A stretch of 64,000 bases of DNA from an uncultured Bacilli bacterium. Its GTDB lineage: Bacteria > Bacillota_I > Bacilli_A > RF39 > UBA660. A program made the translations under genes and the position numbers. Positions within the stretch are counted from its first letter, which is position 1. Each line of letters starts with the position of its first letter. Below are positions 3,574 to 64,000 of the stretch, piece by piece. The DNA lies in assembly GCA_963931065.1 (NCBI GenBank), contig OZ006970.1, positions 934,903 through 998,902 of the forward strand. The letters run 5' to 3'. The notes under the pieces are model-generated. The model saw only the letters and a program-made list of their open reading frames with translations, made no database searches and was not told the origin of the DNA.

Positions 3574-5080
3574 AATAATAAAGTTTTTTTATGTTTTTTT
3601 TGCTATTATCTTTTTATATTTGCTTATAAATATTCCATTTAGAGAAATATCAACTCTTTATGATATTAATTCATTAATCTTTGTACCAATAAGTATAATA
3701 ATAATCTTTATTTGGTATTTTATATATAAAGTAGTTAATAAGAAATTTAATAAACTTACAAATAAAAAGAAAATTATTTTGATATGTTCTACATTTATTT
3801 TTATTATAATTATAGAAATTTTAATTATTCTTTTTTTAGATGTTCCTTTAGGGTGGGATTTTGAAGTTGTATATCAACAAGCGAAAAGTTATGTTTTAAA
3901 CCATGCACATTTAAATAGTGGTGGTGTACCACATTATTTTCAATATTTTCCAAATAATATTCCAATTTTTATTGTGTTAGTTATTGTTTTTAAATTTTTT
4001 CAAATATTTGGTATGAATGACTTTTTATTAGTTGGTGAAATATTTAATGCTATTTTGATTTTGTTGACTATTATTTTTACTTATTTATTTATAAAAAAAA
4101 GTTATGGAGAAGCAAAAGCATATTTTTCATTGTTAATATCTTTGTTTTTTATTCCACTATTCTTATATATTCCAGTATTTTATTCTGATACATTTTCAAT
4201 ATTATTCGTTCCATTAATCCTTTATACATCTGCATTTTTTAATTCTTCTAATAAAAAATATAGAATTATTTCATATTTGTGTTTTGGAATATTTTCTTAC
4301 ATAGGGTGTAAAATGAAAATGACTGTAATTTTTATTCCTTTGGCCATTATCTTTGCTCAAATGTTGAAAGCTAATTATAAATGTTTTTTGATTTTATTAT
4401 CATCATTAGTTCTTTCTTTCTTAGTTTTGGGTAGTTTTTATAATTATTTTGTTCTTGAAAAAGATATTTTTTATGCAAAATATGATAATTATGGAGCAAT
4501 CCCTTATACTCATTGGGTAATGATGGGAATTGAGGATGGAGAGGTTAAAGATCATAATTCTTATGGCGGATATAATGGTGATGATTATGAGAAAACAGAA
4601 AGTTTTAAAACTGGCAGAGATAGTATGAAATATCATATAAAAGAAATAAAGAGAAGAATTAATAAATGGGGTTTTATTGGTTATGCTAATTATCTTACAA
4701 ATAAAGCTGTTAATGCATGGGGAGACGGAAATTATTATGCTGCTATAAAACTGAATTGGCAAAACAAATATAATACAAATAATTTTCAAAAAATTATTTC
4801 TGGAAGTGATAATAATCATTATATGATATATTTTAATTCTAGTGTTTCATTTGCGTTTTTGATTTTATTAGTAATGTCATTTTTATGGGCATTAATTAAA
4901 AAAGATAATAATTTGTTAGTGATTCAATTATCCATTTCTATGATTTTTGTATTTTTACTATTATGGGAAAATCGTTCTAGATATTTATATAATTATATTC
5001 CAATTTTTAATATTGTAATTGTCTATTATATAGATAAGCTTAAGTTATTAGGATTAAGATGGAAGAAATATCGAGGGTAG
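3566..5080 (+). CDS. Polytopic membrane protein, candidate GT-C fold (ArnT/PMT/GtrC-like) glycosyltransferase
   Basis: Multi-TM N-terminal half followed by a hydrophilic loop (DNYGAIPYTHWVMMGIEDGE...); located just upstream of a GtrB-like gene. Confidence 0.45.
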   Translation: MSRIIKFFYVFFAIIFLYLLINIPFREISTLYDINSLIFVPISIIIIFIWYFIYKVVNKKFNKLTNKKKIILICSTFIFIIIIEILIILFLDVPLGWDFEVVYQQAKSYVLNHAHLNSGGVPHYFQYFPNNIPIFIVLVIVFKFFQIFGMNDFLLVGEIFNAILILLTIIFTYLFIKKSYGEAKAYFSLLISLFFIPLFLYIPVFYSDTFSILFVPLILYTSAFFNSSNKKYRIISYLCFGIFSYIGCKMKMTVIFIPLAIIFAQMLKANYKCFLILLSSLVLSFLVLGSFYNYFVLEKDIFYAKYDNYGAIPYTHWVMMGIEDGEVKDHNSYGGYNGDDYEKTESFKTGRDSMKYHIKEIKRRINKWGFIGYANYLTNKAVNAWGDGNYYAAIKLNWQNKYNTNNFQKIISGSDNNHYMIYFNSSVSFAFLILLVMSFLWALIKKDNNLLVIQLSISMIFVFLLLWENRSRYLYNYIPIFNIVIVYYIDKLKLLGLRWKKYRG

Positions 5081-5260
5081 AAAAGAAATAATTTTATTAA
5101 TTATAATAAGAATTGTAGCTTTTTATTATTTTTTCCATTATTTTATCTATTTTTATATTAATTGAAAAAAGTGTTAAATATTTACAATGATTTAAGTTAA
5201 TGGTAAACTAGTTTTAGTAATATTAAAATATTATGAAACTAGTATGAGGAAGTGTTATTT

Positions 5261-6229
5261 ATGAAAAGAAAACAAGTTAGTCAAGATATTTTATATGTTG
5301 TAATACCATGTTACAATGAAGAAGAAGTTTTAGAAGAAACTACAAGGCAGTTAAAAGAGAAAATGAAGGATTTAATCACAACAAAGAAAATAAGCGATAA
5401 AAGTAGAGTTATGTATGTTAATGATGGCAGCAAGGATAAAACTTGGAATATCATTGAAAAAATTCATAGAAAAGAAAAACTATTTACTGGTATATCCTTA
5501 TCCAGAAATAGAGGACATCAAAATGCATTATTAGCAGGTTTAATGACTGCGAAAAATTATGCTGATGTAGTTATTAGTATGGATGCTGATTTACAGGATG
5601 ATATTAATGCTATGGATGAAATGTTAGATAAATATTATCAAGGTAATGATATTGTCTATGGAGTTAGAAGTTCCAGAAAAAAAGATACTTGGTTTAAAAG
5701 AACTACTGCTGAAGGTTTCTATAAATTTATGAATAAAATGGGAGTAGATGTTGTTTATAATCATGCTGATTATAGGTTGACTAGTAAAAGGGTATTAGAC
5801 TATTTAGAAAATTACAAGGAGGTAAATTTATTCTTGCGTGGTATTTTTCCTTTAATTGGTTTTTCATCAGACATTGTTTACTATGAGAGAAACGAAAGAT
5901 TTGCAGGTGAGAGTAAATATCCATTAAAAAAGATGCTTTCTTTTGCATGGGATGGTATTACTTCTTTTTCAATTCGTCCAATAAAACTTGTTTTAAATTT
6001 AGGAATCTTTATTTTTGCTATTAGTATATTGATTTTAATATATTGTTTAATAGTTAAATTATTTGGTTATACAGTTGATGGTTGGACATTTATTATGTGT
6101 TCTATCTGGATTGTAGCAGGGCTTGAAATGTTATCTTTAGGAATAATAGGAGAATATGTTGGTAAAATTTACAGTGAGACCAAAGCAAGACCTAGGTATA
6201 TAATATCTAGAAATCTAAATGAAGAGTAA
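5261..6229 (+). CDS. Polyprenyl-phosphate sugar transferase (GtrB/CsbB-like GT2 with C-terminal TM pair)
   Basis: 'YVVIPCYNEEEVL', 'VNDGSKDKT', 'MDADLQDD' motifs and two C-terminal TM helices typical of bactoprenol glucosyltransferases; RBS GAGGAAG upstream of ATG 5261. Confidence 0.8.
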   Translation: MKRKQVSQDILYVVIPCYNEEEVLEETTRQLKEKMKDLITTKKISDKSRVMYVNDGSKDKTWNIIEKIHRKEKLFTGISLSRNRGHQNALLAGLMTAKNYADVVISMDADLQDDINAMDEMLDKYYQGNDIVYGVRSSRKKDTWFKRTTAEGFYKFMNKMGVDVVYNHADYRLTSKRVLDYLENYKEVNLFLRGIFPLIGFSSDIVYYERNERFAGESKYPLKKMLSFAWDGITSFSIRPIKLVLNLGIFIFAISILILIYCLIVKLFGYTVDGWTFIMCSIWIVAGLEMLSLGIIGEYVGKIYSETKARPRYIISRNLNEE

Positions 6230-17739: not shown

Positions 17740-18255
17740 GTGATAAGAATGAGAATTAATAATAAAGGCATAACTTCTGTAGAGTTATTAGTATGTTTTA
17801 TAATTGTATCAACAATAGTCGCTAGTATGTATAGTTTAATACTTAGTTATCGTAATAGAGAACAGATAGAAGAAGTTAATAATGAAGTAGTTTCTTTTAG
17901 TAATACTTTACAAAGAGATATTCAAAAAGATTTAGTAAATGGTCACTTAGTTAATGTTACTAATGTAAGTGCTGATGGACATAGTGCAACTTTAACATTT
18001 GATAATCCTTTTAATTATACAACTACTCTTACTATAAAACCAAATGAAGGAGTTATTAGTTATGGTAAAAGTAGTGATGTAATTGATTATAAAATACCTG
18101 GAATTACTGATTTAATGTTAAGCCCTGATTCTAAAATTGAATATATTCCTGCTACTAATGGTTATTTAAAAATAACAATAATTTTAACTCATCCAAATTT
18201 TAAAAATAGCATATATTCTTTTATGATAAATGCTCCCGTTAATTATATATATTAA
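17740..18255 (+). CDS. Type IV prepilin-like (pseudopilin / ComGC-like) protein
   Basis: Class III signal peptide 'NKG|ITSVELLV' (Glu at +5). Confidence 0.7.
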   Translation: MIRMRINNKGITSVELLVCFIIVSTIVASMYSLILSYRNREQIEEVNNEVVSFSNTLQRDIQKDLVNGHLVNVTNVSADGHSATLTFDNPFNYTTTLTIKPNEGVISYGKSSDVIDYKIPGITDLMLSPDSKIEYIPATNGYLKITIILTHPNFKNSIYSFMINAPVNYIY

Positions 18256-19163
18256 AACAAAATATAAATAACTAAAGCGATAGATGTTTCTATAATTCTA
18301 CCTATAAAGAAGTATTTATAATCTATATCTACTTCTTTTATATTATTTAAGACTTGTAAATGAACTGAGAAACTACCAAAGGTAATAAAGGATAGGACAA
18401 GTAAACCTTTTATATAATTAGTAGTATTAATAGTATTTACCATACTAATACCACTAGTCATATCAAGAATACCTGTAATTATTGTTTCAAAAAAAGAATT
18501 TAGAGAAAGACTACTAGTAAGTAATTTACTAAATAACATAAAGAAGGCAATACTACCTAGCATAAACAAAAGAACTTTAACTGCATCATTTATCGCATTA
18601 GGTAAAGCTTCTAAAAAAGATTTACTTTGATAAGTATTTATTACTTTAGAAGAAATAATCTCTTTAGGTCTTAACATAATACCAAGTATTATGTTAGATA
18701 GTATCCCTATGATTAATATTTTATAAGCAAGAGAAACACTATTTAATATTAGACCACATGTACCTAGAACAAAAAGAGGATTAGCAAAGTGGGTAAAGGT
18801 TAAAAGATAATTAGCCGTATCTTTAGAAATACTTTTATTCTTTAAACATTCAACAATATATTTAGATCCACTAGGAAAACCCGATATAAGACTTACTAAA
18901 ATAATAAAAGAACTATTACCATCAACATGAAATAATCTTTTTATTAGAGGATTTAATTTCCTACTTATTTTAGTAGCAAGACCAAGTTCTAATGCAAGTG
19001 ATGCTAAGACAAAGAAAGGAAATATAGAAGGAAAGAGTTTAGTTTTAAAGATATTAATACTTAAAATACCACTTTCTATAATTAAAGAAGGATTAATAAA
19101 AATACTTAAGTAGAGAAATAATATAATAAGTACTGCAAATAATTCTTGATATTTTCTTTTCAT
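18252..19163 (-). CDS. Sporulation integral membrane protein YlbJ-like (nucleoside-recognition/gate-domain membrane protein)
   Basis: Polytopic membrane protein lying divergent to a ylbL-like gene, mirroring the Bacillus ylbJ–ylbL neighbourhood. Confidence 0.4.
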   Translation of the reverse strand: MKRKYQELFAVLIILFLYLSIFINPSLIIESGILSINIFKTKLFPSIFPFFVLASLALELGLATKISRKLNPLIKRLFHVDGNSSFIILVSLISGFPSGSKYIVECLKNKSISKDTANYLLTFTHFANPLFVLGTCGLILNSVSLAYKILIIGILSNIILGIMLRPKEIISSKVINTYQSKSFLEALPNAINDAVKVLLFMLGSIAFFMLFSKLLTSSLSLNSFFETIITGILDMTSGISMVNTINTTNYIKGLLVLSFITFGSFSVHLQVLNNIKEVDIDYKYFFIGRIIETSIALVIYILF

Positions 19164-21695: not shown

Positions 21696-23708
21696 TTATT
21701 CATCTGGTTGTTCTGGAGTTTCAGCAGGAGAATCATCTTTTGGTGGAGTTTCTTGAGACTCATCAGGCTTTTCTGGATCACTTGGTTCTATAGGAATTTC
21801 TTCTGGATTGCTAGGTTCAGTACTTGGTGAGGTTGGCTTTGTAGTTGTAGTGTTGTTATCTTCTTCCTCATCTTCAACTACTTCTTCTTTAACACTTCCT
21901 CCAGATAATGTTAAAGTAACACTACCACTTATTAAATCAATTCTCTTATTAGCAGGGTAACTTTGACTAACTACATAACCACTTTCACCTTTAAAAGTAA
22001 CTCTTATTCCATGAGCATTTGCATAACTTTGGGCTTGACTCATACTATCACCAGTAAAATCAGGTAATAAATCATAAGTAAAAGCAGTTTTATAAGGTCC
22101 AGTTCCTGTTACTTTTTTCTCATAATCAGAATCATTAATTGAGAATGAGAACTCTTTAATCATATCAGGTTCTTCTTGTTCAAGATTAATTTTCATCGCT
22201 TTTACAATATCATCACGACTCTTAGTATTTGGAACATAATCCCATAAAACTAATCTTGTTCTCTCATCATAAATCATTTGTCCTGTACCATCTAAATATA
22301 ATTGTTCAATGTTAATAAGATCAGCATCATCTTTTTGTAAAGAATTATTCATAATATCTTTAGCAATATCATAGAAAGATAAAATTTGTTGTTCTGTAAA
22401 GTTAGTATCAAGATTATTAGTAATTGTATTTAAAACATCCATAACTTGGTTAATACTTTTCATATCTTTAACTTTATTTACTATTCCTTCAATAACTAAC
22501 TGTTGATTTAAACCTCTATCTAAATCACCCGCTGCAAGTTGTTTTCTATTTCTTGCAAGAACTAAAGCTTGTTCTCCATTTAATGTTTGAACTCCTTCGC
22601 TTATACAAACTTGTCCTTCACGGTTAGAATTATCAGTACATAAGTCTTGTGGAACTTCTACTGTAATACCACCAAGGGTATCAACTAAATTAACTAATCC
22701 CTTAAAATTAATCTTAGCATAATAATCAATTGTAACATCAAAATAATTTTCAATTGTACTCATCATACAATCAGTACCATAAGCGGCAGCATGAGTTATT
22801 TTATTTTCAGGAGTACCACTCCAACAAGAAATAGGTACATAACTATCTCTTGGAATAGAAAGCATTGTAGCATTTAAAGTATTAGGATTAAAAGTAACTA
22901 GAATTAAACTATCACCATTTGCAACAGTATTTTTAGATAAACCTTCTTCAGCAGAATCAACTCCCATTAAAAGAATTGTAAAAGGCTCTGTTACAGATTT
23001 ACCAGCTGAACTTTTTCTATTACTAGTACTTGCTTTCTTCATCTTTTTTTCTTTAGTTAAAATTATTTTTGTATCATCAGTAATATTTTCATATGTTTCC
23101 ATACTTGTAAACATAGATGGATAATCAGTTGGAACAAAGATAGAATCAACTTCACCTTCATATAAATCAGCCATTGCTGTGAAGTAATCATCATACTCAA
23201 CTATTTCATTATCATCTTTAAGTTTATTTTCATCAATTACTTCATTAGGAATAATATTACCTTCTTTAGAAGTTTCATCAGATAATATACCAATAGAATT
23301 ATCAGACAAATCTTTAACATCTTCTATTTCACTATCACTTTTAACTATTAAACTACTAGAATAAGTAACAGTATCTCTATTAATACTAGAAAGTGTTCCA
23401 TAAGCATACATTATAAGTCCACTTATTAGACAGCTTATAAGTAAATAGATAATTATAAAGAAGGTAAGAAGCCTTGCTTTCTTTTCTTTATGTCTTCTTT
23501 TAGACCTAACTTTAAATATAATGACTAAGTCTAAGATAACAAATACTCCTATAATAATATATCTTATTACTTCTTCAACTGGTCCTAATAATAAAATATT
23601 ATAAATAGCGAATATATTACTTAGTATTACAATAGCACTAAGTATCGCTAACCATAATCTACATTTTTTCTTTTTCATCTCTTTTTTTTCTTCATTATTC
23701 TTTCTCAT
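21696..23708 (-). CDS. LytR-CpsA-Psr (LCP) family cell-wall polymer ligase with a C-terminal PASTA-like domain and Pro/Glu-rich tail
   Basis: N-terminal TM helix, LCP core ('LLMGVDSAEEG...GDSLILVTFNP'), C-terminal low-complexity PEEPxxP tail; ATG 23708 after GGAGG. Confidence 0.75.
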   Translation of the reverse strand: MRKNNEEKKEMKKKKCRLWLAILSAIVILSNIFAIYNILLLGPVEEVIRYIIIGVFVILDLVIIFKVRSKRRHKEKKARLLTFFIIIYLLISCLISGLIMYAYGTLSSINRDTVTYSSSLIVKSDSEIEDVKDLSDNSIGILSDETSKEGNIIPNEVIDENKLKDDNEIVEYDDYFTAMADLYEGEVDSIFVPTDYPSMFTSMETYENITDDTKIILTKEKKMKKASTSNRKSSAGKSVTEPFTILLMGVDSAEEGLSKNTVANGDSLILVTFNPNTLNATMLSIPRDSYVPISCWSGTPENKITHAAAYGTDCMMSTIENYFDVTIDYYAKINFKGLVNLVDTLGGITVEVPQDLCTDNSNREGQVCISEGVQTLNGEQALVLARNRKQLAAGDLDRGLNQQLVIEGIVNKVKDMKSINQVMDVLNTITNNLDTNFTEQQILSFYDIAKDIMNNSLQKDDADLINIEQLYLDGTGQMIYDERTRLVLWDYVPNTKSRDDIVKAMKINLEQEEPDMIKEFSFSINDSDYEKKVTGTGPYKTAFTYDLLPDFTGDSMSQAQSYANAHGIRVTFKGESGYVVSQSYPANKRIDLISGSVTLTLSGGSVKEEVVEDEEEDNNTTTTKPTSPSTEPSNPEEIPIEPSDPEKPDESQETPPKDDSPAETPEQPDE

Positions 23709-23886
23709 TAAATAACCTCCATGTAACACATAAAACTATACCTTATCATTATAGACTATAATTTATATCATTTCAAGTTCTATACTTTTGTTTGCATTGT
23801 AAAGTTTACGTTTATTTATTACTTTTTAAAGAAATTTGTCTAATAATCTGTTATAATGTTATTAGAAGAATAGGAGTTGGTAGTAT

Positions 23887-25704
23887 ATGAAGAAATTTTC
23901 TTATATTTTATTAATCTTTATTATGCTTTTTACTTTTATTCCTGCTATAAATGCAAGTAGTTATATTGTATTAAATACTAATAAGTATTTTAGAGTAGTA
24001 CCAGGAGGAGATTTTGTAGGCGGTATTACAGATGGAGTATTACTAAGAGGTACAAAAGTAAATTTAATTAGTAAAGATGGCGAAAGTGGTAATGGTTGTA
24101 AAAATCCTTGGTATAAAGTAGAGTATGAAGGAAAAGTTGGTTATATTTGTTCAAGTGATCAAGCTGTTATAGATGTCGCTGATGTAGATTTGAATGGTGA
24201 CTTTGAAAAAGAAATGATTAGTAAAGGCTTTACAGAAAGTTATTTGCCTTATTTAAAAGCTTTACATGAGAAACATCCTAATTGGAATTTTAAAGCAGTT
24301 CGTACTAATATAGATTTTGATACTGCTGTTACTAATGAAAATTATGGAGAGATTAGTTTAATAGATGGTACTGATGAAAGTTTAAGAAGTAAGGAATGGC
24401 CTTATTATCAAAATGGAGTATATCAACAAATAGAACCAGGCTGGTATGTGGCTAGTAGAGAAACTGTTTCATATTATTTAGATCCTAGAAACTTCTTACA
24501 AGAAGAATATATCTTTATGTTTGAAGATATTAAATATAATGCTTCTATTCATACAGAGGATGCAGTAAAAGGAGTTGTTAGTGGAACTTTTCTTAATACT
24601 AATGAATATATAAATATTTTAATGAAAACAGCAAAGACTAATAATGTTAGTCCTGTATATCTTGCTAGTAGAATTAGACAAGAAAAAGGAAATAGTGATA
24701 GTATTTCAACTACAGGAGCATCTTTTACTTATGAAGTTGATAATAACTGTTTAAATAATTTAGGTTATGCAAATAATTCAAATAGTTGGAATGCCCTTAA
24801 TTCTTGTGGTAATGGTAAGACTTATAGTGGTATTTATAACTACTTTAATATAGGAGCATATGGTTCTTATAAATCTCCACAAATTAGAGGATTAATTTGG
24901 GCAAATGGAGGAATTGATGGAAGTGTTACTGATTATGGTAGACCATGGAATAGTAAAGAAAAAGCTATTATGGGGGGAGCTTCTTATATTGTAGGTGCTT
25001 ATGTAAATAATGGACAAAACACTTTATATTATCAAAAATTCAATGTATCACCAGAGGCTACTTATCCACATTATACTCATCAGTATATGACTAATGTAAG
25101 AGCTGCTTCAGGGGAAGCTTATAGTACTTATAAAAGTTATAGAGATAATAATTTACTTAATAATAACTATGAGTTTTTAATACCAGTTTATGATAATATG
25201 CCTAATGATAATGAAGTAATACTACCTAGTGATAGTGAAGGAGAAGAAATTGTTACGACTCCTAATATTGAAATAAATAAAGGTGTTGTAGGATCAGGCT
25301 TTAAAATAGATGGAGAGGCTATATCTAATATAGATTTTAATACAAGTATTGATTCTATTAATAGTAAATTAAGTAGTATTAATGCTAATTTAAAAGTAAC
25401 TAGTTACTTAGATAGATACGGAAACAAAGCAAGTGGTAATGTTGGTACAGGAGATACTTTAGTAATTAGTAATGGAACTACATCAAAAAGTTATAAAGTA
25501 GTTATTTATGGTGATAATAATGGTGATGGTAAAACTAGTGTTTTAGATTTACTTAGAGTACAAAAAGATATTTTAGGAAGTAGTAATTTATCTGTTTATG
25601 ATAAGAAAGCTAGTGATACTAATAAAGATGGTAAAATTGATATTGTTGACTTATTAAGAGTTCAAAAACAATTACTTGGTAATAATGTAATAGAACAGGA
25701 GTGA
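23887..25704 (+). CDS. Secreted SH3b + putative peptidoglycan hydrolase (glucosaminidase-like) + type I dockerin protein
   Basis: Signal peptide; SH3b-like 'GTKVNLISKDG...PWYKVEYEGKVGYICS'; C-terminal duplicated dockerin Ca-binding repeats 'GDNNGDGKTSVLDLLRVQKDILG' and 'DTNKDGKIDIVDLLRVQKQLLG'. Confidence 0.7.
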   Translation: MKKFSYILLIFIMLFTFIPAINASSYIVLNTNKYFRVVPGGDFVGGITDGVLLRGTKVNLISKDGESGNGCKNPWYKVEYEGKVGYICSSDQAVIDVADVDLNGDFEKEMISKGFTESYLPYLKALHEKHPNWNFKAVRTNIDFDTAVTNENYGEISLIDGTDESLRSKEWPYYQNGVYQQIEPGWYVASRETVSYYLDPRNFLQEEYIFMFEDIKYNASIHTEDAVKGVVSGTFLNTNEYINILMKTAKTNNVSPVYLASRIRQEKGNSDSISTTGASFTYEVDNNCLNNLGYANNSNSWNALNSCGNGKTYSGIYNYFNIGAYGSYKSPQIRGLIWANGGIDGSVTDYGRPWNSKEKAIMGGASYIVGAYVNNGQNTLYYQKFNVSPEATYPHYTHQYMTNVRAASGEAYSTYKSYRDNNLLNNNYEFLIPVYDNMPNDNEVILPSDSEGEEIVTTPNIEINKGVVGSGFKIDGEAISNIDFNTSIDSINSKLSSINANLKVTSYLDRYGNKASGNVGTGDTLVISNGTTSKSYKVVIYGDNNGDGKTSVLDLLRVQKDILGSSNLSVYDKKASDTNKDGKIDIVDLLRVQKQLLGNNVIEQE

Positions 25705-25709
25705 TTAAC

Positions 25710-27035
25710 TTGAAAAAAATATTATTTATATTAGGACTTAGCTTCCTTTTCTTTTGTCCTTATGTAGTAGATGCAGCATCTATTTCTGTAGCAGGAACAA
25801 CTGCAACAGGAACAGTAGGAGGTAATATTACAGTTAAAGTTACAATAAGTGAAAAAAGTGGTTTAGGAAGTTGGGAATATAGTCTTGATTATGATAGTAG
25901 TAAATTACAACTTTTAAGTGGTAATACTCATGTTGTTGGTTATGTAGATAGAGAAGGTCAAACTAATCAAAGTTATACTTATACATTTAGAGTTAAAGGA
26001 ACAGGAAGTACTACTATATCTGTAGTAAATACTGCTATCGCTTCTTGGAATGAAGTAGTTACAAGTCCAACTGATAGTACAACTATTAATTTAATAGCAA
26101 GAAGTGAAGTAGAAGAAAGTTATAGTACTGATAATAATCTTACAAGTCTAGAAGTAGAAGGTTATACCTTAAGTCCAGAGTTTAATAAAAATACAACTAA
26201 TTATAGTGTGGATGTAGATAGTGATGTTACTAGTGTTAAAGTTAATGCTAAAGCAAGTGATAGTAAAGCTAGTATAACCGGTACAGGAGATGTAGAAGTT
26301 CATGAGGGTGCTAATACTATAAATGTTGTGGTGGAAGCAGAAAATGGTTCTACTAAAACTTATACAATAGTAGTTAATGTTAAAGAAAAAGATCCTATAA
26401 ATGTAAAAGTTAATAAAGATAACTTAAGTGTCGTTAAAAAAACTGATGAGTTAACAGACTTAATTAAAGATTATTATGTAGATACAACTGTTAAAATTAA
26501 TGATGAAGAAGTACCTGCTTATAAAATAGAAGCCTTAGATATTACTTTAGTCGCTTTAAAAGATGAGAAAGGTAATATTAAGTTTTATATCTATGATGAT
26601 GGAGAATATACTTTATATCAAGAATTAGGTAGTGATTTACTTACTATTCATCTTTTAGATAATGGTAAAATTCCTCCTAACTATAAAAAATATACAGTTA
26701 ATATAGATGGAGAAGAATATACAGTTTATAAACTAAATAAAAAGTCTAAATACTATTTAGTATATGGTGAGAATGTAGAAACAGGTAAAAAAGGATTATA
26801 TTTATATGATAGTGTTGATAAGACTATACAAAGATATTATACTGAAGAAGCAGATAGTTTAAAAGATGAGTTAACAATTAATTCTTATATAATAGTTGGT
26901 CTTACTTGTTTAATAGTTTTATTATTAATAATTTTCTTAATAGCTTTACATACTAAGAATAGTGATAAAAGAAGAAAAAGAAAAGAAATTAAAAAGAGAT
27001 TAAAACAAGAGAAGAATGATTTCTTAAAAGATTAG
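25710..27035 (+). CDS. Membrane-anchored cohesin-domain + cadherin-like beta-sandwich (CLBS) protein
   Basis: Signal peptide; cohesin-like N-domain (ITVKVTISEKSGLGSWEYSLDYDSSKLQLL); CLBS 'LTSLEVEGYTLSPEFNKNTTNYSVDVDSDVTSVKVNAKASD...YTIVVNV'; C-terminal TM helix plus KR-rich tail; TTG start 8 nt after AGGAG. Confidence 0.65.
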   Translation: MKKILFILGLSFLFFCPYVVDAASISVAGTTATGTVGGNITVKVTISEKSGLGSWEYSLDYDSSKLQLLSGNTHVVGYVDREGQTNQSYTYTFRVKGTGSTTISVVNTAIASWNEVVTSPTDSTTINLIARSEVEESYSTDNNLTSLEVEGYTLSPEFNKNTTNYSVDVDSDVTSVKVNAKASDSKASITGTGDVEVHEGANTINVVVEAENGSTKTYTIVVNVKEKDPINVKVNKDNLSVVKKTDELTDLIKDYYVDTTVKINDEEVPAYKIEALDITLVALKDEKGNIKFYIYDDGEYTLYQELGSDLLTIHLLDNGKIPPNYKKYTVNIDGEEYTVYKLNKKSKYYLVYGENVETGKKGLYLYDSVDKTIQRYYTEEADSLKDELTINSYIIVGLTCLIVLLLIIFLIALHTKNSDKRRKRKEIKKRLKQEKNDFLKD

Positions 27036-27045
27036 GAGTGTAATT

Positions 27046-27684
27046 ATGGAAGTTAAACATCATAGTAAAAAGTTAGGAATAATGATACTTATTGGTTTTT
27101 TATTAATTGTTATAGGAATTATATCTTATATTATTATTAATTATAATAGTGATCAAGCTGAGGTTAGAAAGAGAATGGAAACGGTTAGAGATTCTTATGA
27201 GTCTTTTAAAACTGATGTAGACTCTTTTAATAGTATTAGGGATGATATTTATACTAATGTTTTTACAGATGATATGTATTATCAAACACTAAAAGATAAT
27301 GATGCTAGTTTTAAAGAGTTATTTAATAATTATAAGGATAATTTAGATAAAATTGATAAAGATTATGATGATGTAAAAGATAAATGCATTAATGTTTTAC
27401 ATCCTGAAGCAGATGTTAATAATAAGTGTGAAGCGATTGTTTCTTCTTATGAAGAAGTTGTTAATACTTATATAAGTGATGTTAATAATTATAATAACTT
27501 AATCACTTCTTATAATAAATGGTTAAGTGATACTAATAGTAGTGATACTAAATTAGAGGAAATAAAGTTAGATAGAGACTATATAGATATAAATGGTGAT
27601 AGAGAGTATAATGGAAGAAAAGATGAAGATATTAATATAAGTGATGAAGAAGAGAATAATACAGGAGTGGTACCTGATGAATAA
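27046..27684 (+). CDS. Membrane-anchored hypothetical protein (Asp/Asn-rich ectodomain)
   Basis: N-terminal TM helix and an acidic coiled-coil-like remainder; RBS AGGAG. Confidence 0.4.
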   Translation: MEVKHHSKKLGIMILIGFLLIVIGIISYIIINYNSDQAEVRKRMETVRDSYESFKTDVDSFNSIRDDIYTNVFTDDMYYQTLKDNDASFKELFNNYKDNLDKIDKDYDDVKDKCINVLHPEADVNNKCEAIVSSYEEVVNTYISDVNNYNNLITSYNKWLSDTNSSDTKLEEIKLDRDYIDINGDREYNGRKDEDINISDEEENNTGVVPDE

Positions 27685-28762
27685 AAATGACTTAGATAAG
27701 ACAATTCTAATGCCTAGTATTGCTAGTGAAATAAAAAAAGAAAAAAGAAAAGATAAAAAGATAATTACAAAAATTATAATCGCTCTATTTATAATAGGAA
27801 GTTCTTTTTCTTTATTTCTTTTTTATGGACCACTAGAAGGGTTTAGAAATTTTTGGATTACTTCTGCGATGACTTCTATGTCTCATCAATACCTTGCTAC
27901 TTGGTTTTATAATGATGATGTTATTAATGAAGTATTATCTAATAATCACATAATTGAAGTTGATGAAAATACTAATCCTGATTTAATTAATTTTAAAGAT
28001 TATGACTCTGATGCTAAGATATATAAAAATGAATATGAAAAACAAATATTAACAAAAGACCCAGGTAACGATTTATATAAAGTTATTGAAGTTAGTGGTA
28101 GTGGATATCAAGGATATTTAGTAGCAATATATGATCCATCACGTGTTTCTATTGCGACAACTGCTTATCTTGGTAAAAGAGGAGAAGCGATTACTACAGT
28201 TGCAAAAAGAGAAAATGCTATAATTGCAATTAATGCCGGTGGCTTTTATGATCCAGATTGGAATAGTAATGGAGCTTTACCTCATGGTACTGTTATAAGT
28301 AATGGAAAAGTAGTAAGTGATTTTGAAGATGCTAGAATGGGTGGTGGCTTTGTAGGATTTACTAAAGATAATAAGTTAGTACTTGGTAAGATGACTAAGG
28401 AAGAAGCACTTTCTATGGGTATTAGAGATGCCATTGAGTTTGGACCTTTCTTAATAGTTAATGGTAAGAGTAGTTTTGTTAAAGGTAATGGTGGTTGGGG
28501 TATTGCACCTAGAACTGCTATTGGTCAAAGAGAAGATGGTATAGTCTTATTCTTAGTAATTAATGGACGTCTTGCCACATCTATTGGTGCAGATATGGGA
28601 GACTTAACTGAGATAATGGAAAACTATGGTGCTGTAAATGCTGCTAATATGGATGGTGGAAGTTCTAGTGCTTTAGTTATCAATAATGAGATTATTAATA
28701 CACCAGTTGCCGGTGGTGACAATGGTCTTAGAGATATACCAACATTTTGGATAGTTAAGTAA
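27677..28762 (+). CDS. Phosphodiester glycosidase family protein (NAGPA-like, DUF2233)
   Basis: N-terminal TM helix; 'AINAGGFY' and 'NAANMDGGSSSALV' motifs; ATG 27677 after AGGAGTGG. Confidence 0.7.
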   Translation: MNKNDLDKTILMPSIASEIKKEKRKDKKIITKIIIALFIIGSSFSLFLFYGPLEGFRNFWITSAMTSMSHQYLATWFYNDDVINEVLSNNHIIEVDENTNPDLINFKDYDSDAKIYKNEYEKQILTKDPGNDLYKVIEVSGSGYQGYLVAIYDPSRVSIATTAYLGKRGEAITTVAKRENAIIAINAGGFYDPDWNSNGALPHGTVISNGKVVSDFEDARMGGGFVGFTKDNKLVLGKMTKEEALSMGIRDAIEFGPFLIVNGKSSFVKGNGGWGIAPRTAIGQREDGIVLFLVINGRLATSIGADMGDLTEIMENYGAVNAANMDGGSSSALVINNEIINTPVAGGDNGLRDIPTFWIVK

Positions 28763-28779: not shown

Positions 28780-28866
28780 GCAGGAATGGTGGAATAGGTA
28801 GACACACTATCTTGAGGGGGTAGTGATTAATTAATCGTGCGAGTTCAAATCTCGTTTCCTGCACCA
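28780..28866 (+). tRNA. tRNA-Leu (anticodon GAG), type II with long variable arm, CCA encoded
   Basis: Acceptor GCAGGAA/TTCCTGC; 3-bp D stem GTG/CAC; anticodon stem CTATC/GGTAG with loop TTGAGGG; variable hairpin GATTAATTAATC; T-loop TTCAAAT; 3′ ACCA. Confidence 0.9.
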
Positions 28867-28966
28867 TTGGGAAATCTGTTCGAACTATTCGAACTTTTGA
28901 TATAGGAATCAATCAAAAATGATTGATTTTTTCGCTTATATGAAAAAATCAACCTAAAAAGAAAGG

Positions 28967-30794: not shown

Positions 30795-31232
30795 ATGAAG
30801 CTATATGAAAGTAAAAATTGGGAAGTAGTATTTGTTAAATGGTGCCAAGAATTTCCTGGAGATTGTATTATATCTTCAAAAAAGAAATCGTTAAGTGATT
30901 TAACAAATGAAGAATGGATAGAATTAGGTGAATTGGAAAAAGAATTAGAAAGAATTACTAAAAAATTATTTGATGCAACAATGTTCAATTTTGCTTGTTT
31001 AATGAATAATGCTTACAGAGATAAAGAAACTCCGCATGTCCATTTTCATTTCATTCCTAGATATGACGGCAAAAGGATAATTTTGGGTAAAAAATATAAA
31101 GATAAACATTTTGGATATAATATGTGGAAATGGTCATTAAGTAAGTTTAAATGTCAAAAAGATATTTTTAGCAGAGAAGAAAAAGAACAACTATATAAAA
31201 TGATGAAAGATGAGTGGAACTATTATAAGTAA
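30795..31232 (+). CDS. HIT family nucleotide hydrolase/transferase
   Basis: Histidine triad 'HVHFHFIPR'. Confidence 0.7.
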   Translation: MKLYESKNWEVVFVKWCQEFPGDCIISSKKKSLSDLTNEEWIELGELEKELERITKKLFDATMFNFACLMNNAYRDKETPHVHFHFIPRYDGKRIILGKKYKDKHFGYNMWKWSLSKFKCQKDIFSREEKEQLYKMMKDEWNYYK

Positions 31233-31808: not shown

Positions 31809-32738
31809 ATGGCAGAAAAAACTTTTTTAACTATTGATGAATTGATAACTAATATTAGATTTAAAAATATTAATATAAAAAATGAAGATGATGTTAGAAA
31901 CATTTTAGAAACTAATAATTATTATTTTATCATGGGTTATAAATTTGCATTTAAGAATAACGATGGAACTTATAAAGAAAATACTTCTTTTGAAGATATT
32001 TATTCATTGTATATATTTGATAAGGCGTTAAAATTAATTATTTTAAATCCTATACTTGAAATAGAGCAAAAACTTAAGACTGTATATACAAATAATTATA
32101 GTTTTAGATATGGATTTAAAGTGAGTGATATACTAAATAGTAATAACTACGATTCATCAAATAATTACTTGAATACTATATTATTAAATCTAGATAAACA
32201 ATTAAATGACTTTGGTAATAAAAATAAAGCAGTAATGTTTTATAGAAATAATCACTCATTTATTCCTTTATGGGTATATATGAAAATATTATCATTTGGT
32301 ATGATTCGTGATATGTTTTATGTATCAAAACCAAATGATAAGGACTATATGAAAAACAAATTAACTAGTGAAAATATAAATAGTAGTGAAGTTGCTAATA
32401 TGTTAAGATTACTTGTTAGAGTGAGAAATATTTGTTGTCATGATGATATACTATTATCATTTGTAGATGATAAATTAGGTATAAAAACTACAAAATATCA
32501 TAAAGAATTTAACTTAAAGAAAGATAAAAATAATAATATTATTCAAGGAAAAAAAGATTTGTTTGCTATTTTAATCTCTATAAAGTTTTTTTCTACTCGC
32601 AAGAAGTTTAATACTTTAATAGATAATTTATCAAAATTAATAAATGAGTATGACAAAAAAATTGGTTCATTAAATAGAAAGCAATTATTGTCAATAATGC
32701 ATTTGCCAGAAGATTTTGAAATATTAAAAAAATTATAA
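31809..32738 (+). CDS. Abi_2 family (AbiD/AbiF-like) abortive infection protein
   Basis: 309 aa; 'IPLWVYMKILSFGMIRDMFY' and 'LLVRVRNICCHDDIL' match Abi_2 signature regions; extended -10 TGTTATAAT upstream. Confidence 0.65.
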   Translation: MAEKTFLTIDELITNIRFKNINIKNEDDVRNILETNNYYFIMGYKFAFKNNDGTYKENTSFEDIYSLYIFDKALKLIILNPILEIEQKLKTVYTNNYSFRYGFKVSDILNSNNYDSSNNYLNTILLNLDKQLNDFGNKNKAVMFYRNNHSFIPLWVYMKILSFGMIRDMFYVSKPNDKDYMKNKLTSENINSSEVANMLRLLVRVRNICCHDDILLSFVDDKLGIKTTKYHKEFNLKKDKNNNIIQGKKDLFAILISIKFFSTRKKFNTLIDNLSKLINEYDKKIGSLNRKQLLSIMHLPEDFEILKKL

Positions 32739-33799: not shown

Positions 33800-35287
33800 A
33801 TGGAAAAGGTATATTGTTGTATTGATTTAAAGAGTTTTTATGCATCAGTAGAATGTGTTGAAAGAGGACTTAATCCTTTGAAAACTAATCTTGTTGTTGC
33901 CGATAAATCTAGAACAGAAAAGACAATCTGTTTAGCAGTAAGTCCAGCATTGAAGCAGTATGGTATTCCTGGTAGAGCGAGACTTTTTGAAGTGTTAAGT
34001 AAGGTTAAAGAGATCAATAAAATGAGAAGAAAAGCTAATGGCTATAAAAAGTTTAGTGGTAAATCTGTTAATGATGATATTTTAAAGAAAGATAAGACTA
34101 AAGAACTTGATTTAATTATCGCTCCTCCTAGAATGGCTCATTATATTGATTATTCAGCTAAAATATATAATATCTATTTAAAGTACATTGCTAAAGAAGA
34201 TATATTTGTTTACTCTATAGATGAAGTTTTTATGGATTTAACTAATTACTTAAAATATTATAAACTATCTCCTAAAGACTTAATAACTAAAATAATTAAA
34301 GATGTTTATGATACAACTGGTATTACAGCGACTGGGGGAATTGGTACTAACTTATTTCTTGCTAAAGTAGCTATGGATGTAGTTGCAAAACATATTACAC
34401 CTAATGAGTTTGGAGTAAGAGTTGCCGAACTTAACGAAATGTCTTATAGACAGTTGATATGGAGTCATGTGCCTATTACAGATATTTGGAGAGTAGGTAG
34501 GGGTATTTCTAAAAGATTAGAGAAGTATGGTATGTATACAATGGGTGATGTTGCAAGATGTTCTATTAATAATGAAGATTTACTATATAAATTATTTGGT
34601 GTTAATGCCGAACTTCTAATAGACCATGCTTGGGGTTATGAGCCTTGTACAATAGAATCTATAAAAAATTATAAGCCCCTTGCAAAAAGTATAAGTAGTG
34701 GTCAAGTTTTACAGTGTCCATATGATTATAATAAGACAAAGTTAATAGTAAGAGAGATGGCTGATTTACTAGCATTAGATCTTGTTTCAAAAAAATTAGT
34801 AACAGAACAATTAGTCTTAACTATTGGTTATGATATAGATAATATTACTGATGATTATAATGGAGAAATTACAATAGACCATTATGGACGTGCTATACCT
34901 AAGTCTAGCCATGGAACTATTAACTTAGATTATAAAACATCTTCATCTAAAATAATTATTGAAGCGATGATTAAATTATTTGAAAGAATAATAAATCCTA
35001 AACTATTAGTTAGAAGAGTTAATATGTGTGCCACTAAGTTAGCAAGTGAAGAAGATGAAAAAGGTAAAGTAAGATATAGGCAGTTAGATTTATTTTCATC
35101 TTTAGAAGAAAAAGATAATAGGTTAGATTATAATAGAGAAACTTTAAAAGAAGAAAACAATCTTCAAAATGCTATGTTAAAGATAAAGGAGAAGTATGGT
35201 AAAAATGCTATTTTAAAAGGTATGGATTTAGAAGATGGGGCGACGACAATGGATAGAAATAGACAGATAGGAGGACATCATGAATAA
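33800..35287 (+). CDS. Y-family DNA polymerase (UmuC/DinB-like translesion polymerase)
   Basis: 'VYCCIDLKSFYASVECVERGLNP' N-terminal catalytic motif and 'SIDEVFMDLT'. Confidence 0.85.
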   Translation: MEKVYCCIDLKSFYASVECVERGLNPLKTNLVVADKSRTEKTICLAVSPALKQYGIPGRARLFEVLSKVKEINKMRRKANGYKKFSGKSVNDDILKKDKTKELDLIIAPPRMAHYIDYSAKIYNIYLKYIAKEDIFVYSIDEVFMDLTNYLKYYKLSPKDLITKIIKDVYDTTGITATGGIGTNLFLAKVAMDVVAKHITPNEFGVRVAELNEMSYRQLIWSHVPITDIWRVGRGISKRLEKYGMYTMGDVARCSINNEDLLYKLFGVNAELLIDHAWGYEPCTIESIKNYKPLAKSISSGQVLQCPYDYNKTKLIVREMADLLALDLVSKKLVTEQLVLTIGYDIDNITDDYNGEITIDHYGRAIPKSSHGTINLDYKTSSSKIIIEAMIKLFERIINPKLLVRRVNMCATKLASEEDEKGKVRYRQLDLFSSLEEKDNRLDYNRETLKEENNLQNAMLKIKEKYGKNAILKGMDLEDGATTMDRNRQIGGHHE

Positions 35288-61919: not shown

Positions 61920-63818
61920 GTCGTATAATTTAGCAGGTGGAAATCCTGCCTAGTAAGGTAAACCCACACCACTAGTAACGAGTCTTGGAGCGAAACTGGT
62001 AACAGTTAGTTTAAGCGTAGACAGTTAGGTACTAGGGTTAGTATTGAGCCTCGAAATATGTAAAATCAGAGTGCAGATGTAGTCGAATATGCAGAATGCA
62101 ATATTTAATATCGCGATATCGGGGATGTAGTATTAAAACTCTGCGGGGTCTAAGACCTAATCATGGTACACAATGATTATACGATGACCAGTGAGAACCT
62201 ATTTCTTCCTTTAAGTCCAAATGGCAATGAGTCTATGGTAAAGCAAGAGAGCGAAAGGTATGATATATACAAGTCCTAAAAAGACAAGATATATCAGAAG
62301 AGAAATAGGTAGTCAGATGAACTCATAGTACTGATGATACCATATCAATAAATATGGAGGAAGGAAGGGGTTCAATTAATATAGGTCTTGTTAGAAGAAA
62401 CATTATCGCTATACAAGGAGGGATTAAATAATGACAACTAAAATAGCAAGAATAAATCAGATAGCAAAAGAAAGACCTAAAGAGGTATTTACTTCTATTT
62501 ATCATTTAATAAACAAAGAACTACTAAGAGAATGCTTTGATGAATTAGATGGCAATAAAGCAACTGGGCTTGATAAAGTTACTAAAGATGAATATTTTCA
62601 TAATTTAGATGAAAACCTAGATAATTTAGTAGAAAAGCTAAAGAATAAAGCTTATAGACCAAGTCCAGCAAGAAGAGTAAATATACCTAAGGCAAATGGG
62701 AAACTAAGAAGTCTTGCAATTGCCAACTTTGAAGACAAGATAGTACAACTAGCAGTAAAGAAGCTTGTGGAAGCAATATACGAACCTAAGTTTACTAATA
62801 ATATGTTTGGTTTTAGACCAAATAGAGGTTGCCATGATGCTCTTAAATATCTAAACTATTGTATAGAAAAGCAACCTACAAACTATATACTAGATGCAGA
62901 TATTGAGGGTTTCTTTGATAACATTGACCATGATAAGTTAATGTTAGGTTTAGAAATGCATATTAAAGATAGAAATCTATTAAGATTAATTAAAAGGTTT
63001 CTGAAAGCAGGTATAATGGAAAACGGAACATATATAAAAGGAGAACTAGGTACACCACAAGGTTCAATATTAAGTCCAGTATTAGCCAATATCTATATGT
63101 ATTATGTACTTATGCTATGGTTTGAAAAAGAAATAAAACCTAAGTATAAAGGTTTTATTGAAATAATCAACTATGCAGATGACATGGTTGTATGTTTTCA
63201 AAATAAATCAACTGCCGAAGAAGTGTATAAACAAATGGAAGATAGGCTTAAAGAGTGTGGCTTAAAATTTGCAAAAGATAAAACTAGACTCATTGAATTT
63301 GGAAGATTTGCAAGTGAAAATAGGAAAAGAAAAGGTTTAGGTAAACCTGAAACATTTGACTTTCTAGGTTTTACTCACTACTGTAGTAAAAGCAGAGATA
63401 AGAAACACTTTAGAGTAAAACGTAAAACATCTAAGAAGAAGTATGCTAAGAAACTACAGGAGTACAATACTTGGGCTAAGAATAATAGAGGTAAAACATT
63501 AAAAGAAATAATGGAAACTACAAAAAGAAAACTACTAGGACATTATAATTACTTTGGTATAACCGATAATAGCCGGGCACTAGTGAAGTACACTTATGAG
63601 GTCATTAGGATTTTATTTAAATGGCTAAACAGAAGGAGTCAAAGGGAAAGTTATACATGGGAAGAATTCCGTCAGATGGTGAACACTTTCCAATTTCCTA
63701 AGCCTAAAATTAAGGTAAATATATATGCTATGTGATGAATTATATTACTAAAAGCCGTATGCGGAAAAGCCGCACGTACGGATTTGTGAGGGCTATATAG
63801 AGTAATCTATATTTCTAC
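61908..63818 (+). mobile_element. Bacterial group II intron (about 1.9 kb), En-less RT/maturase type
   Basis: 5′ GTGCGAC at 61908; domain IV ORF; domain V AAGCCGTATGCGGAAAAGCCGCACGTACGG at 63754–63787; domain VI-like hairpin ending ...TTCTAC about 63818. Confidence 0.7.
62431..63735 (+). CDS. Group II intron reverse transcriptase/maturase
   Basis: RT domains 0–7 ('ANGKLRSLAIANFEDKIVQ', 'ILDADIEGFFDNIDH', 'YADDMVV') and X/maturase domain; no HNH endonuclease domain. Confidence 0.9.
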   Translation: MTTKIARINQIAKERPKEVFTSIYHLINKELLRECFDELDGNKATGLDKVTKDEYFHNLDENLDNLVEKLKNKAYRPSPARRVNIPKANGKLRSLAIANFEDKIVQLAVKKLVEAIYEPKFTNNMFGFRPNRGCHDALKYLNYCIEKQPTNYILDADIEGFFDNIDHDKLMLGLEMHIKDRNLLRLIKRFLKAGIMENGTYIKGELGTPQGSILSPVLANIYMYYVLMLWFEKEIKPKYKGFIEIINYADDMVVCFQNKSTAEEVYKQMEDRLKECGLKFAKDKTRLIEFGRFASENRKRKGLGKPETFDFLGFTHYCSKSRDKKHFRVKRKTSKKKYAKKLQEYNTWAKNNRGKTLKEIMETTKRKLLGHYNYFGITDNSRALVKYTYEVIRILFKWLNRRSQRESYTWEEFRQMVNTFQFPKPKIKVNIYAM

Positions 63819-64000
63819 TCGATAAGGATTAAAGATACACTATAATTTGCAAAGCTTAGTTTAGATTATGTTTTAGATAAAATAACAATTAACTAATAAC
63901 AAATTAGTACGGTGGCGACCATCGGAATTTAAGCCTACGTGAGAATAAGGGTTACTTTATCTATGAAGTAGGAATCCTTGAAGGTAACGACAAGGTAAAA

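Follow-up and report, generated by a model that had tools for sequence, protein, structure and literature searches.

In the stretch of DNA analysed here (the window), comprising 64,000 nucleotides of contig OZ006970.1 (GenBank assembly GCA_963931065.1, positions 934,903 to 998,902 of the forward strand) from an uncultured gut Bacilli bacterium of small genome, two open reading frames (ORFs) of the same strand (23887-25704 and 25701-27035) encode P1, a predicted secreted peptidoglycan hydrolase which ends in a dockerin, and P2, a predicted membrane-anchored protein headed by a cohesin. The two proteins probably constitute a minimal, 1:1, non-cellulosomal cohesin-dockerin tether for a hydrolase acting on the cell's own wall. 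According to the mechanism proposed, the P1 dockerin would plug into the P2 cohesin in a calcium-dependent manner, and the glucosaminidase would thereby be held on the surface of the producer, inside the peptidoglycan layer and at a set distance from the membrane. The SH3b domain of P1 would engage peptidoglycan and its catalytic domain, of glycoside hydrolase family 73 (GH73), would cleave the GlcNAc-β1,4-MurNAc bonds (N-acetylglucosamine to N-acetylmuramic acid), a cleavage which may serve wall turnover, the trimming of glycan strands or the separation of daughter cells. A cohesin-dockerin tether would in this manner replace anchoring by sortase, by SLH domains or by choline binding.

The dockerin-bearing hydrolase

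The initial annotation of this locus had read two canonical calcium-binding dockerin repeats at the C-terminus of P1, and both loops are indeed present. In fact, residues 541-597 match the whole model of Pfam Dockerin_1 (PF00404) with 45.3 bits, against a cut-off of 22.9 (E 1e-11), the dockerin is matched by Pfam in all 16 P1 homologues scanned, and the family profile matches the solved Clostridium thermocellum dockerin 2ccl_B (E 1.5e-8). The loops, DNNGDGKTSVLD (residues 543-554) and DTNKDGKIDIVD (residues 577-588), show the canonical spacing of calcium ligands and agree with the dockerin pattern of repeats of about 22 residues, each with a DxNxDGxxxxxD loop. Since each of the two loops is followed by a DLLRVQKxxLG helix, the module is internally symmetric. 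Judged from its sequence, the P1 dockerin is a canonical, type I-like module of two repeats, predicted to bind calcium.

An SH3b domain had also been assigned to P1. It is borderline in the window protein, where SH3_3 is matched by residues 50-90 with 26.8 bits, marginally below the 27-bit cut-off, but clear in the family, with matches in 14 of the 16 homologues (best E 4.6e-8). As regards the glucosaminidase-like hydrolase region of the initial annotation, it was borne out by matches to GH73 enzymes in the Protein Data Bank (PDB) and by an invariant glutamate, even though Pfam Glucosaminidase (PF01832) gave no match to P1 at an E limit of 0.1, with the same outcome when the homologues were scanned. 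A phmmer search of the PDB with the single P1 sequence retrieved the Clostridium perfringens GH73 enzyme Acp (5wqw, E 1e-8), and a profile built from 16 sequences matched SagB (6fxp, 6.6e-17, and 6u0o_B, 1.3e-16) and the Atl glucosaminidase (6fxo, 4.7e-15), together with Acp 5wqw and AtlE (4pi7), the GH73 matches ranging overall from E 7e-17 to 1e-13. Glu266 of P1 is aligned with the catalytic glutamate of the HETGNG motif of Acp and is, like Q399-Y400, invariant in both P1 alignments; furthermore, Y381 and Q383 show no variation among 49 homologues and almost none among 16 more diverse ones. These matches point to a GH73 N-acetylglucosaminidase whose active site is predicted to be intact. The P1 family, with 1993 homologues at E<=1e-3, represents a divergent, insertion-bearing branch of GH73. 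The X module (residues 441-537), located before the dockerin, had no Pfam match.

Two pairs of conserved cysteines were also observed in P1, C71 (24097-24099) with C88 (24148-24150) in the SH3b domain, and C288 (24748-24750) with C307 (24805-24807) in an insertion of the GH73 domain. In a secreted protein of an anaerobe, these may form disulfides or bind metal.

The proposed membrane-anchored partner

For P2, the cohesin-like module announced at residues 25-160 stood as to its nature, on the evidence of orthologues, profiles and a structural model, although its span is shorter, about residues 26-135. The claim had been made to depend on a profile or structural match to cohesins, and both kinds of match were found. 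Searched against PDB sequences, a profile of the isolated domain matched the cohesin dyad of ScaB (3l8q, E 1.2e-4); of its 34 weak PDB matches, cohesins accounted for about 20, including the non-cellulosomal cohesin of NagJ. Moreover, Pfam Cohesin (PF00963, cut-off 24.1 bits) is matched in 12 of 22 P2 orthologues (45-87% identical) and in 14 of 48 distant relatives, with a best E of 8.8e-8. When 1.84 billion representative sequences were searched with the module, the second-best match, at E 7e-37, was a protein of 1031 amino acids (aa) which carries seven modules of Pfam Cohesin (296 bits), and a 67%-identical copy of the module reached 29.9 bits on Pfam Cohesin, over the cut-off; altogether, 253 clusters at 50% identity match it. 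The structural model is a nine-stranded β-sandwich whose nearest solved structures are cohesins, the sequence identity with the C. perfringens cohesins being 9-19%. Residues 26-135, approximately, are assigned to a cohesin on the strength of the Pfam matches of the orthologues, the profile searches and the predicted structure.

The same type of cohesin was observed outside the window, in a protein of 609 aa (P0243) encoded on a 4-kb ENA contig, where a cohesin 67% identical to that of P2 precedes choline-binding repeats and a Peptidase_C39_2 domain. By its sequence, this cohesin type is deployed also on a wall-bound, peptidase-like protein.

The rest of the P2 architecture agreed with what had been claimed. 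The cadherin-like β-sandwich (CLBS, PF12733; residues 147-226, 44.8 bits against a cut-off of 24.2) is the sole Pfam match in the window protein and is present in all 70 relatives scanned (22 of 22 orthologues and 48 of 48 distant relatives), and the C-terminal transmembrane (TM) anchor corresponds to a hydrophobic helix at residues 396-416 with a tail rich in lysine and arginine. Between them lies a third domain of about 160 residues, strongly conserved and confidently predicted, for which comparison with the PDB found no solved structural relative. P1 and P2 both carry Sec-type signal peptides. The layout of P2 is that of a type I membrane protein, with a signal peptide, a single C-terminal helix, a basic tail and three stacked domains, of which the cohesin is membrane-distal; by the positive-inside rule, the basic tail is predicted to be cytoplasmic and the three domains extracellular. 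Anchoring as a lipoprotein was considered and rejected, since the cysteine of the signal peptide (FFCP) is not conserved in orthologues and is therefore not a lipobox.

Distribution and co-evolution of the gene pair

A species survey, in which one genome per species was scanned, returned 79 loci. It is biased towards the Bacilli lineage, because a narrower alignment was used, the broad one being too diverse for a scan of loci. The loci came from uncultured gut 'Bacilli' and 'Tenericutes', 'Mycoplasma sp. CAG:472', 'Clostridium sp. CAG:451' and four Candidatus Onthousia species. In 83 of the 85 loci fetched, hidden Markov models (HMMs) of the window families located an SH3-GH73-X-dockerin gene as the immediate upstream neighbour of the cohesin gene, down to about 35% P2 identity; the other two begin at the cohesin gene, with no upstream DNA, so that all 83 informative loci show the arrangement. 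The same gene order emerged from a reciprocal scan which took P1 homologues as its starting point, and in each of three distant P2 orthologues (46-55% identity) a Dockerin_1 gene lies immediately upstream. In the most distant of these Bacilli loci (L001) the pair is kept and every other neighbour is different. The window itself holds one dockerin and one cohesin, no further dockerin or cohesin-like ORF having been found in its 64 kb.

The arrangement extends to a cultured member of the Clostridia, the Oscillospiraceae species Vescimonas fastidiosa MM35, in which the same two genes are found. The upstream one (L086, pMM35_01, 4095-5861), annotated as 'dockerin type I domain-containing protein', is 32% identical to full-length P1 (E 3e-75), and the downstream one, annotated as 'cadherin-like beta sandwich domain-containing protein', has an N-terminus which was aligned with the cohesin profile at an hhalign probability of 92%. 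A homologue search seeded with the Vescimonas protein yielded near-identical sequences and no others. As far as gene content and order can tell, the two genes stay side by side in 80 or more species of gut Firmicutes from two classes, and this strict adjacency in 83 of 83 loci, together with the Clostridia isolate, gives strong, if indirect, support to a functional pairing of P1 and P2.

The neighbourhood of the pair in L001 (2752-10815) includes a Peptidase_S11 gene, two Gate-family genes and a polysaccharide deacetylase gene, resembling the cortex genes dacB-spmAB/pdaA. Together with a Gate-family gene of the window (18252-19163, minus strand), these neighbours prompted the thought of a sporulation-specific role.

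Two human faecal contigs deposited as UNVERIFIED 'Bacteriophage sp.' also carry the pair, L087 (MT836742, 7682-10711; G+C 40%) and L088 (MT836697, 6050-9470; G+C 47%), the hydrolase of the latter having an extra cadherin-like domain (GH73-CLBS-X-dockerin). The occurrence of P1-like genes on such virome records would be expected if the pair were a mobile or phage-derived lysis module. Nevertheless, the records are unannotated and short besides being UNVERIFIED, and the cohesin gene stands beside the hydrolase gene as in bacterial loci; both proteins have signal peptides, which is not the architecture of a holin-dependent endolysin; the position beside the LCP gene is stable across species; and the genuine phage matches are limited to a GH73 segment of 110 residues in staphylococcal tail hydrolases. 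A phage origin, which appears extremely improbable, was rejected on the grounds of contig quality, bacterial-type pairing, signal peptides and the stable LCP neighbourhood, and the two contigs are probably bacterial DNA in virome data.

Co-evolution tests lean, weakly, towards a coupling of dockerin and cohesin. In a mirror-tree analysis, the partial distance correlation between them was 0.39; with the other P2 domains it came to 0.15 and 0.20, values which the former exceeded in 99.8% and 95.7% of half-samples. Mutual information with average product correction, calculated between dockerin and P2 columns, placed 45 of the top 100 pairs in the cohesin, with 32 expected.

Alternative explanations for the partnership

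Several observations weigh against a cohesin-dockerin tether. The window P2 itself gave no Pfam Cohesin match at E<=0.1. In Vescimonas, the second dockerin repeat is degenerate and its calcium-ligand residues have been lost (…AAQLSGSKIAATSLL…), which suggests that the predicted dockerin of this lineage has one functional binding face. The co-evolution measures are not specific, the GH73-cohesin and GH73-domain 3 correlations being as high as that of dockerin with cohesin, and both tests are confounded by phylogeny, the effective sequence number being 32.

The first of these points counts for an alternative in which both proteins would belong to the same envelope pathway with no binding through these modules, the P2 N-terminus being an Ig-like or BatD-like spacer or a glycan binder, and the dockerin binding something else or serving as a calcium-stabilized tail. 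Competing weak matches to BatD in 10 of the 48 distant relatives are consistent with it, as is the report that many dockerins of non-cellulolytic organisms have no identified cohesin (PMC4081043). However, both the absent Pfam match and the BatD matches can be attributed to the compactness, at about 110 residues, and the divergence of the P2 cohesin. Moreover, the best structural and profile matches are cohesins, the seven-cohesin protein ranks second among the sequence matches, and one dockerin gene strictly adjoins one cohesin gene in more than 80 species of two classes. This alternative is judged quite unlikely.

A second possibility is a regulatory partnership, in which P2, with its third domain, would position the GH73 enzyme near the membrane and activate or restrain it for the cutting of nascent glycan strands, after the manner of SagB and SpdC. 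In Staphylococcus aureus, SagB works with SpdC, a GH73 enzyme being held at the membrane by a membrane partner; SagB is itself provided with a TM helix, the partner protein is polytopic and CAAX-like, and neither a cohesin nor a dockerin is involved. SagB is in fact the nearest solved relative of the P1 catalytic domain, including the chain 6u0o_B deposited with its partner, and the sole NCBIfam match of P1 is 'peptidoglycan release complex glucosaminidase SagB'. In addition, the strongly conserved domain 3, which resembles no known fold, diverges in step with GH73 (partial r 0.36-0.48). The NCBIfam score is, however, 36.8 bits, far under the cut-off of 425, and P2, with one TM helix and lacking a CAAX-protease-like domain, is unlike the polytopic SpdC/LyrA-type partners; the resemblance is functional only. 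Furthermore, a cohesin at the far end of three domains would keep the enzyme away from the membrane, and the correlation evidence is weak. A partnership of this regulatory kind seems improbable.

Gene layout and neighbourhood

The features of the locus are collected in Table 1, in which P2 residues are numbered from the GTG codon. The window is AT-rich, with a G+C content of about 25%. The ribosome-binding site of P2, GGAG at 25698-25701, lies within the final P1 codons and runs into the GTG at 25701. Because of this overlap, P2 probably starts at TTG 25710, which is properly spaced from GGAG and gives a protein of 441 aa, the same as in identical database entries, and the GTG-based residue numbers would shift by 3. 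The two genes are separated by 5 nucleotides with the TTG start or overlap by 4 with the GTG start, and they are translationally coupled whichever start is used. The gene for the small coiled-coil protein is co-transcribed with the pair.

Table 1. Positions in the window of P1, P2, their domains and the neighbouring features
Feature	Position	Strand	Basis
P1 (gene 1), predicted secreted SH3b-GH73-X-dockerin peptidoglycan hydrolase, 605 aa	23887-25704	+	ORF; Pfam Dockerin_1 and SH3_3; PDB GH73 matches
P1 signal peptide, residues 1-23, ...PAINA/SS	23887-23955	+	Hydrophobic N-terminus; cleavage site predicted from sequence
P1 SH3b (SH3_3) core, residues 50-90	24034-24156	+	26.8 bits against 27-bit cut-off
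P1 GH73-type N-acetylglucosaminidase region (predicted), residues ~101-440	24187-25206	+	PDB sequence and profile matches
P1 putative catalytic Glu266 codon	24682-24684	+	Invariant in alignments
P1 X module, residues 441-537, before dockerin	25207-25497	+	Conserved HMM block in most orthologous loci
P1 dockerin, residues 538-605	25498-25701	+	Pfam; profile; motif scan; conservation across loci
P1 dockerin predicted calcium-binding loops, D543-D554 and D577-D588	25513-25548; 25615-25650	+	
P2 (gene 2), predicted cohesin-CLBS-domain 3-TM scaffold, 444 aa from GTG	25701-27035	+	ORF
P2 signal peptide, residues 1-25, ...VVDA/AS	25701-25775	+	Hydrophobicity
P2 compact cohesin module (predicted), residues 24-140, nine β-strands	25770-26120	+	
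P2 cadherin-like β-sandwich, residues 147-226	26139-26378	+	PF12733
P2 juxtamembrane domain 3, residues 228-396; β-hairpins and C-terminal helix running into TM	26382-26888	+	
P2 TM helix, residues 396-416, and K/R-rich tail, residues 417-444, putatively cytoplasmic	26886-27032	+	Kyte-Doolittle maximum 3.38; conserved in alignment
Small N-terminally anchored coiled-coil protein, TM residues 5-36	27046-27684	+	Weak coiled-coil Pfam matches only
Membrane-anchored NAGPA phosphodiester glycosidase	27641-28762	+	PF09992, 150 bits
LCP glycopolymer transferase with PASTA domain, divergently transcribed	21696-23729	-	PF03816, 148 bits; PASTA, 35.9 bits; NCBIfam CpsA/TagU/LytR
tRNA-Leu(GAG)	28780-28866	+	ARAGORN; Rfam
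Terminator-like hairpin, end of transcription unit	28878-28894	+	

The LCP ligase and the phosphodiester glycosidase which the initial annotation had placed on either side of the pair were both recovered, the former with a PASTA domain and the latter as a NAGPA protein. The 'cell-wall remodelling module' drawn from them holds in part. LCP is kept in loci L003, L005 and L089, NAGPA is kept downstream in close relatives, and the position of the small coiled-coil protein is conserved in L003, L005, L089 and L092; in the most distant relatives, however, LCP and NAGPA are not kept and only the pair is conserved. The LCP ligase, NAGPA and the small membrane coiled-coil protein would make up a cell-envelope locus in the lineage of the window, the conserved functional unit being the pair alone.

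The surroundings also bear on a further alternative, namely that the surface-displayed GH73 acts on foreign peptidoglycan, either for the scavenging of muropeptides by a bacterium of reduced genome or for attack on neighbours, with a nutritional role like that of cellulosomes or amylosomes. Some families of RFN20, RF39 and ML615J-28 are predicted to be missing some steps in the making of peptidoglycan precursors and may depend on muropeptides which they scavenge (PMC10868615), and an enzyme held out on the end of a long stalk recalls the scaffoldins which capture substrates. Nevertheless, the former point would apply to the window organism if it belonged to those precursor-poor families, and the pair occurs also in Vescimonas, a cultured member of the Oscillospiraceae. 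Moreover, the locus lies beside the cell's own LCP ligase, and no genes for amino-sugar transport or catabolism adjoin the pair in the loci examined. Action on foreign peptidoglycan is considered very unlikely.

Other features of the window were also observed. The LCP enzyme is an unusual fusion of N-terminal TM segments, a region like phosphonate-binding proteins, LCP, PASTA and a tail rich in proline, threonine and glutamate. Beyond the tRNA-Leu(GAG), the segment 28780-35287 holds short or family-less ORFs together with a HIT-like gene (30795-31232), an Abi_2 abortive-infection gene (31809-32738) and a Y-family polymerase gene (33800-35287), and could be an island inserted beside the tRNA. 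A group II intron is found at 61940-63823, its domains D1-D4 (146.9 bits) and 3' domain lying around a reverse transcriptase/maturase ORF (62431-63735).

Relation to known cohesin-dockerin systems

In C. perfringens, NanJ, NagJ and NagH are large secreted enzymes which target host glycans and carry cohesin or dockerin modules that link enzymes together. The P1-P2 pair resembles them in using cohesin and dockerin outside plant-cell-wall degradation and on glycoside hydrolases; the difference is that the predicted cohesin of the window is borne by a non-catalytic, membrane-anchored protein and that its cargo is a predicted peptidoglycan hydrolase. With the anchoring scaffoldins of cellulosomes and amylosomes (SdbA/OlpB with SLH, ScaE with a sortase signal, Sca of Ruminococcus bromii) it shares a surface-anchored cohesin that would receive a dockerin enzyme, and a type I-like dockerin of two loops. 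In contrast with them, P2 is anchored by a C-terminal TM helix rather than by SLH or LPXTG; it has a single cohesin, no carbohydrate-binding module and a single cargo, the product of the neighbouring gene; and the substrate proposed for P1 is the bacterium's own wall instead of a dietary polymer. With one cohesin, no carbohydrate-binding module and one dockerin in 64 kb, the locus falls outside the definition of a cellulosome or amylosome.

The concept of a single pair linked to GH73 has a precedent, since Ruminococcus bicirculans, a non-cellulolytic gut Firmicute, has one dockerin and one cohesin 'associated with a GH73 enzyme', as PMC4611034 words it, and each Ruminococcus albus strain has one dockerin-bearing GH73 (PMC4081043). 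The likeness to R. bicirculans, a lone cohesin-dockerin pair linked to GH73, is drawn from that description in PMC4611034. The lone cohesin of R. albus, unlike P2, belongs to a ScaF-like cohesin-dockerin adaptor and is not on a membrane protein (PMC4081043). In the literature searched, no experimental or comparative (conservation) treatment of a GH73-linked single pair was found. The present analysis contributes the predicted cohesin at the head of a family annotated only as cadherin-like, its C-terminal TM anchoring, a two-gene unit strict across two classes and an uncharacterised juxtamembrane fold.

Implications

The retention and control of autolysins in Gram-positive bacteria are usually ascribed to repeats that bind the wall, to anchoring by sortase or to partner proteins in the membrane. 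The locus described suggests a further solution, the reuse of a cellulosome-type cohesin-dockerin bond as a 1:1 tether made from two coupled genes. Since the scaffold family is annotated in two named records only as 'cadherin-like beta sandwich domain-containing protein', an N-terminal cohesin would re-annotate many proteins of gut metagenomes, and the P2 cohesin is a natural candidate to bind at least one class of orphan dockerins in non-cellulolytic bacteria. Furthermore, a compact and orthogonal cohesin-dockerin pair is possibly useful for surface display. The idea is open to direct test, since the pair is present in a species in culture, Vescimonas fastidiosa MM35.

As regards the organism, the orders RFN20 and ML615J-28 have been reported to have no srtA/B sortases, and their ancestor to have lost most lyt/cwl endopeptidases (PMC10868615). 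A membrane cohesin would be a plausible replacement for such an anchor, if the window organism belongs to these sortase-less orders; in NCBI, Candidatus Onthousia is placed no more precisely than Bacilli incertae sedis, and its GTDB order may be RFN20.

A wider and rather doubtful extension of the tether would make the pair an 'autolysin docking station', dedicated and conserved widely among gut Firmicutes, in which one cohesin-dockerin bond and a juxtamembrane domain of unsolved fold set where and when the main GH73 enzyme cuts. In a bolder variant, the station would capture foreign peptidoglycan for muropeptide scavenging. If the docking station existed, it would be a functional equivalent of the SagB-SpdC or FtsEX type of hydrolase control, built from cellulosome parts, and it may be the main means of displaying wall enzymes in the lineages reported to be without sortases.

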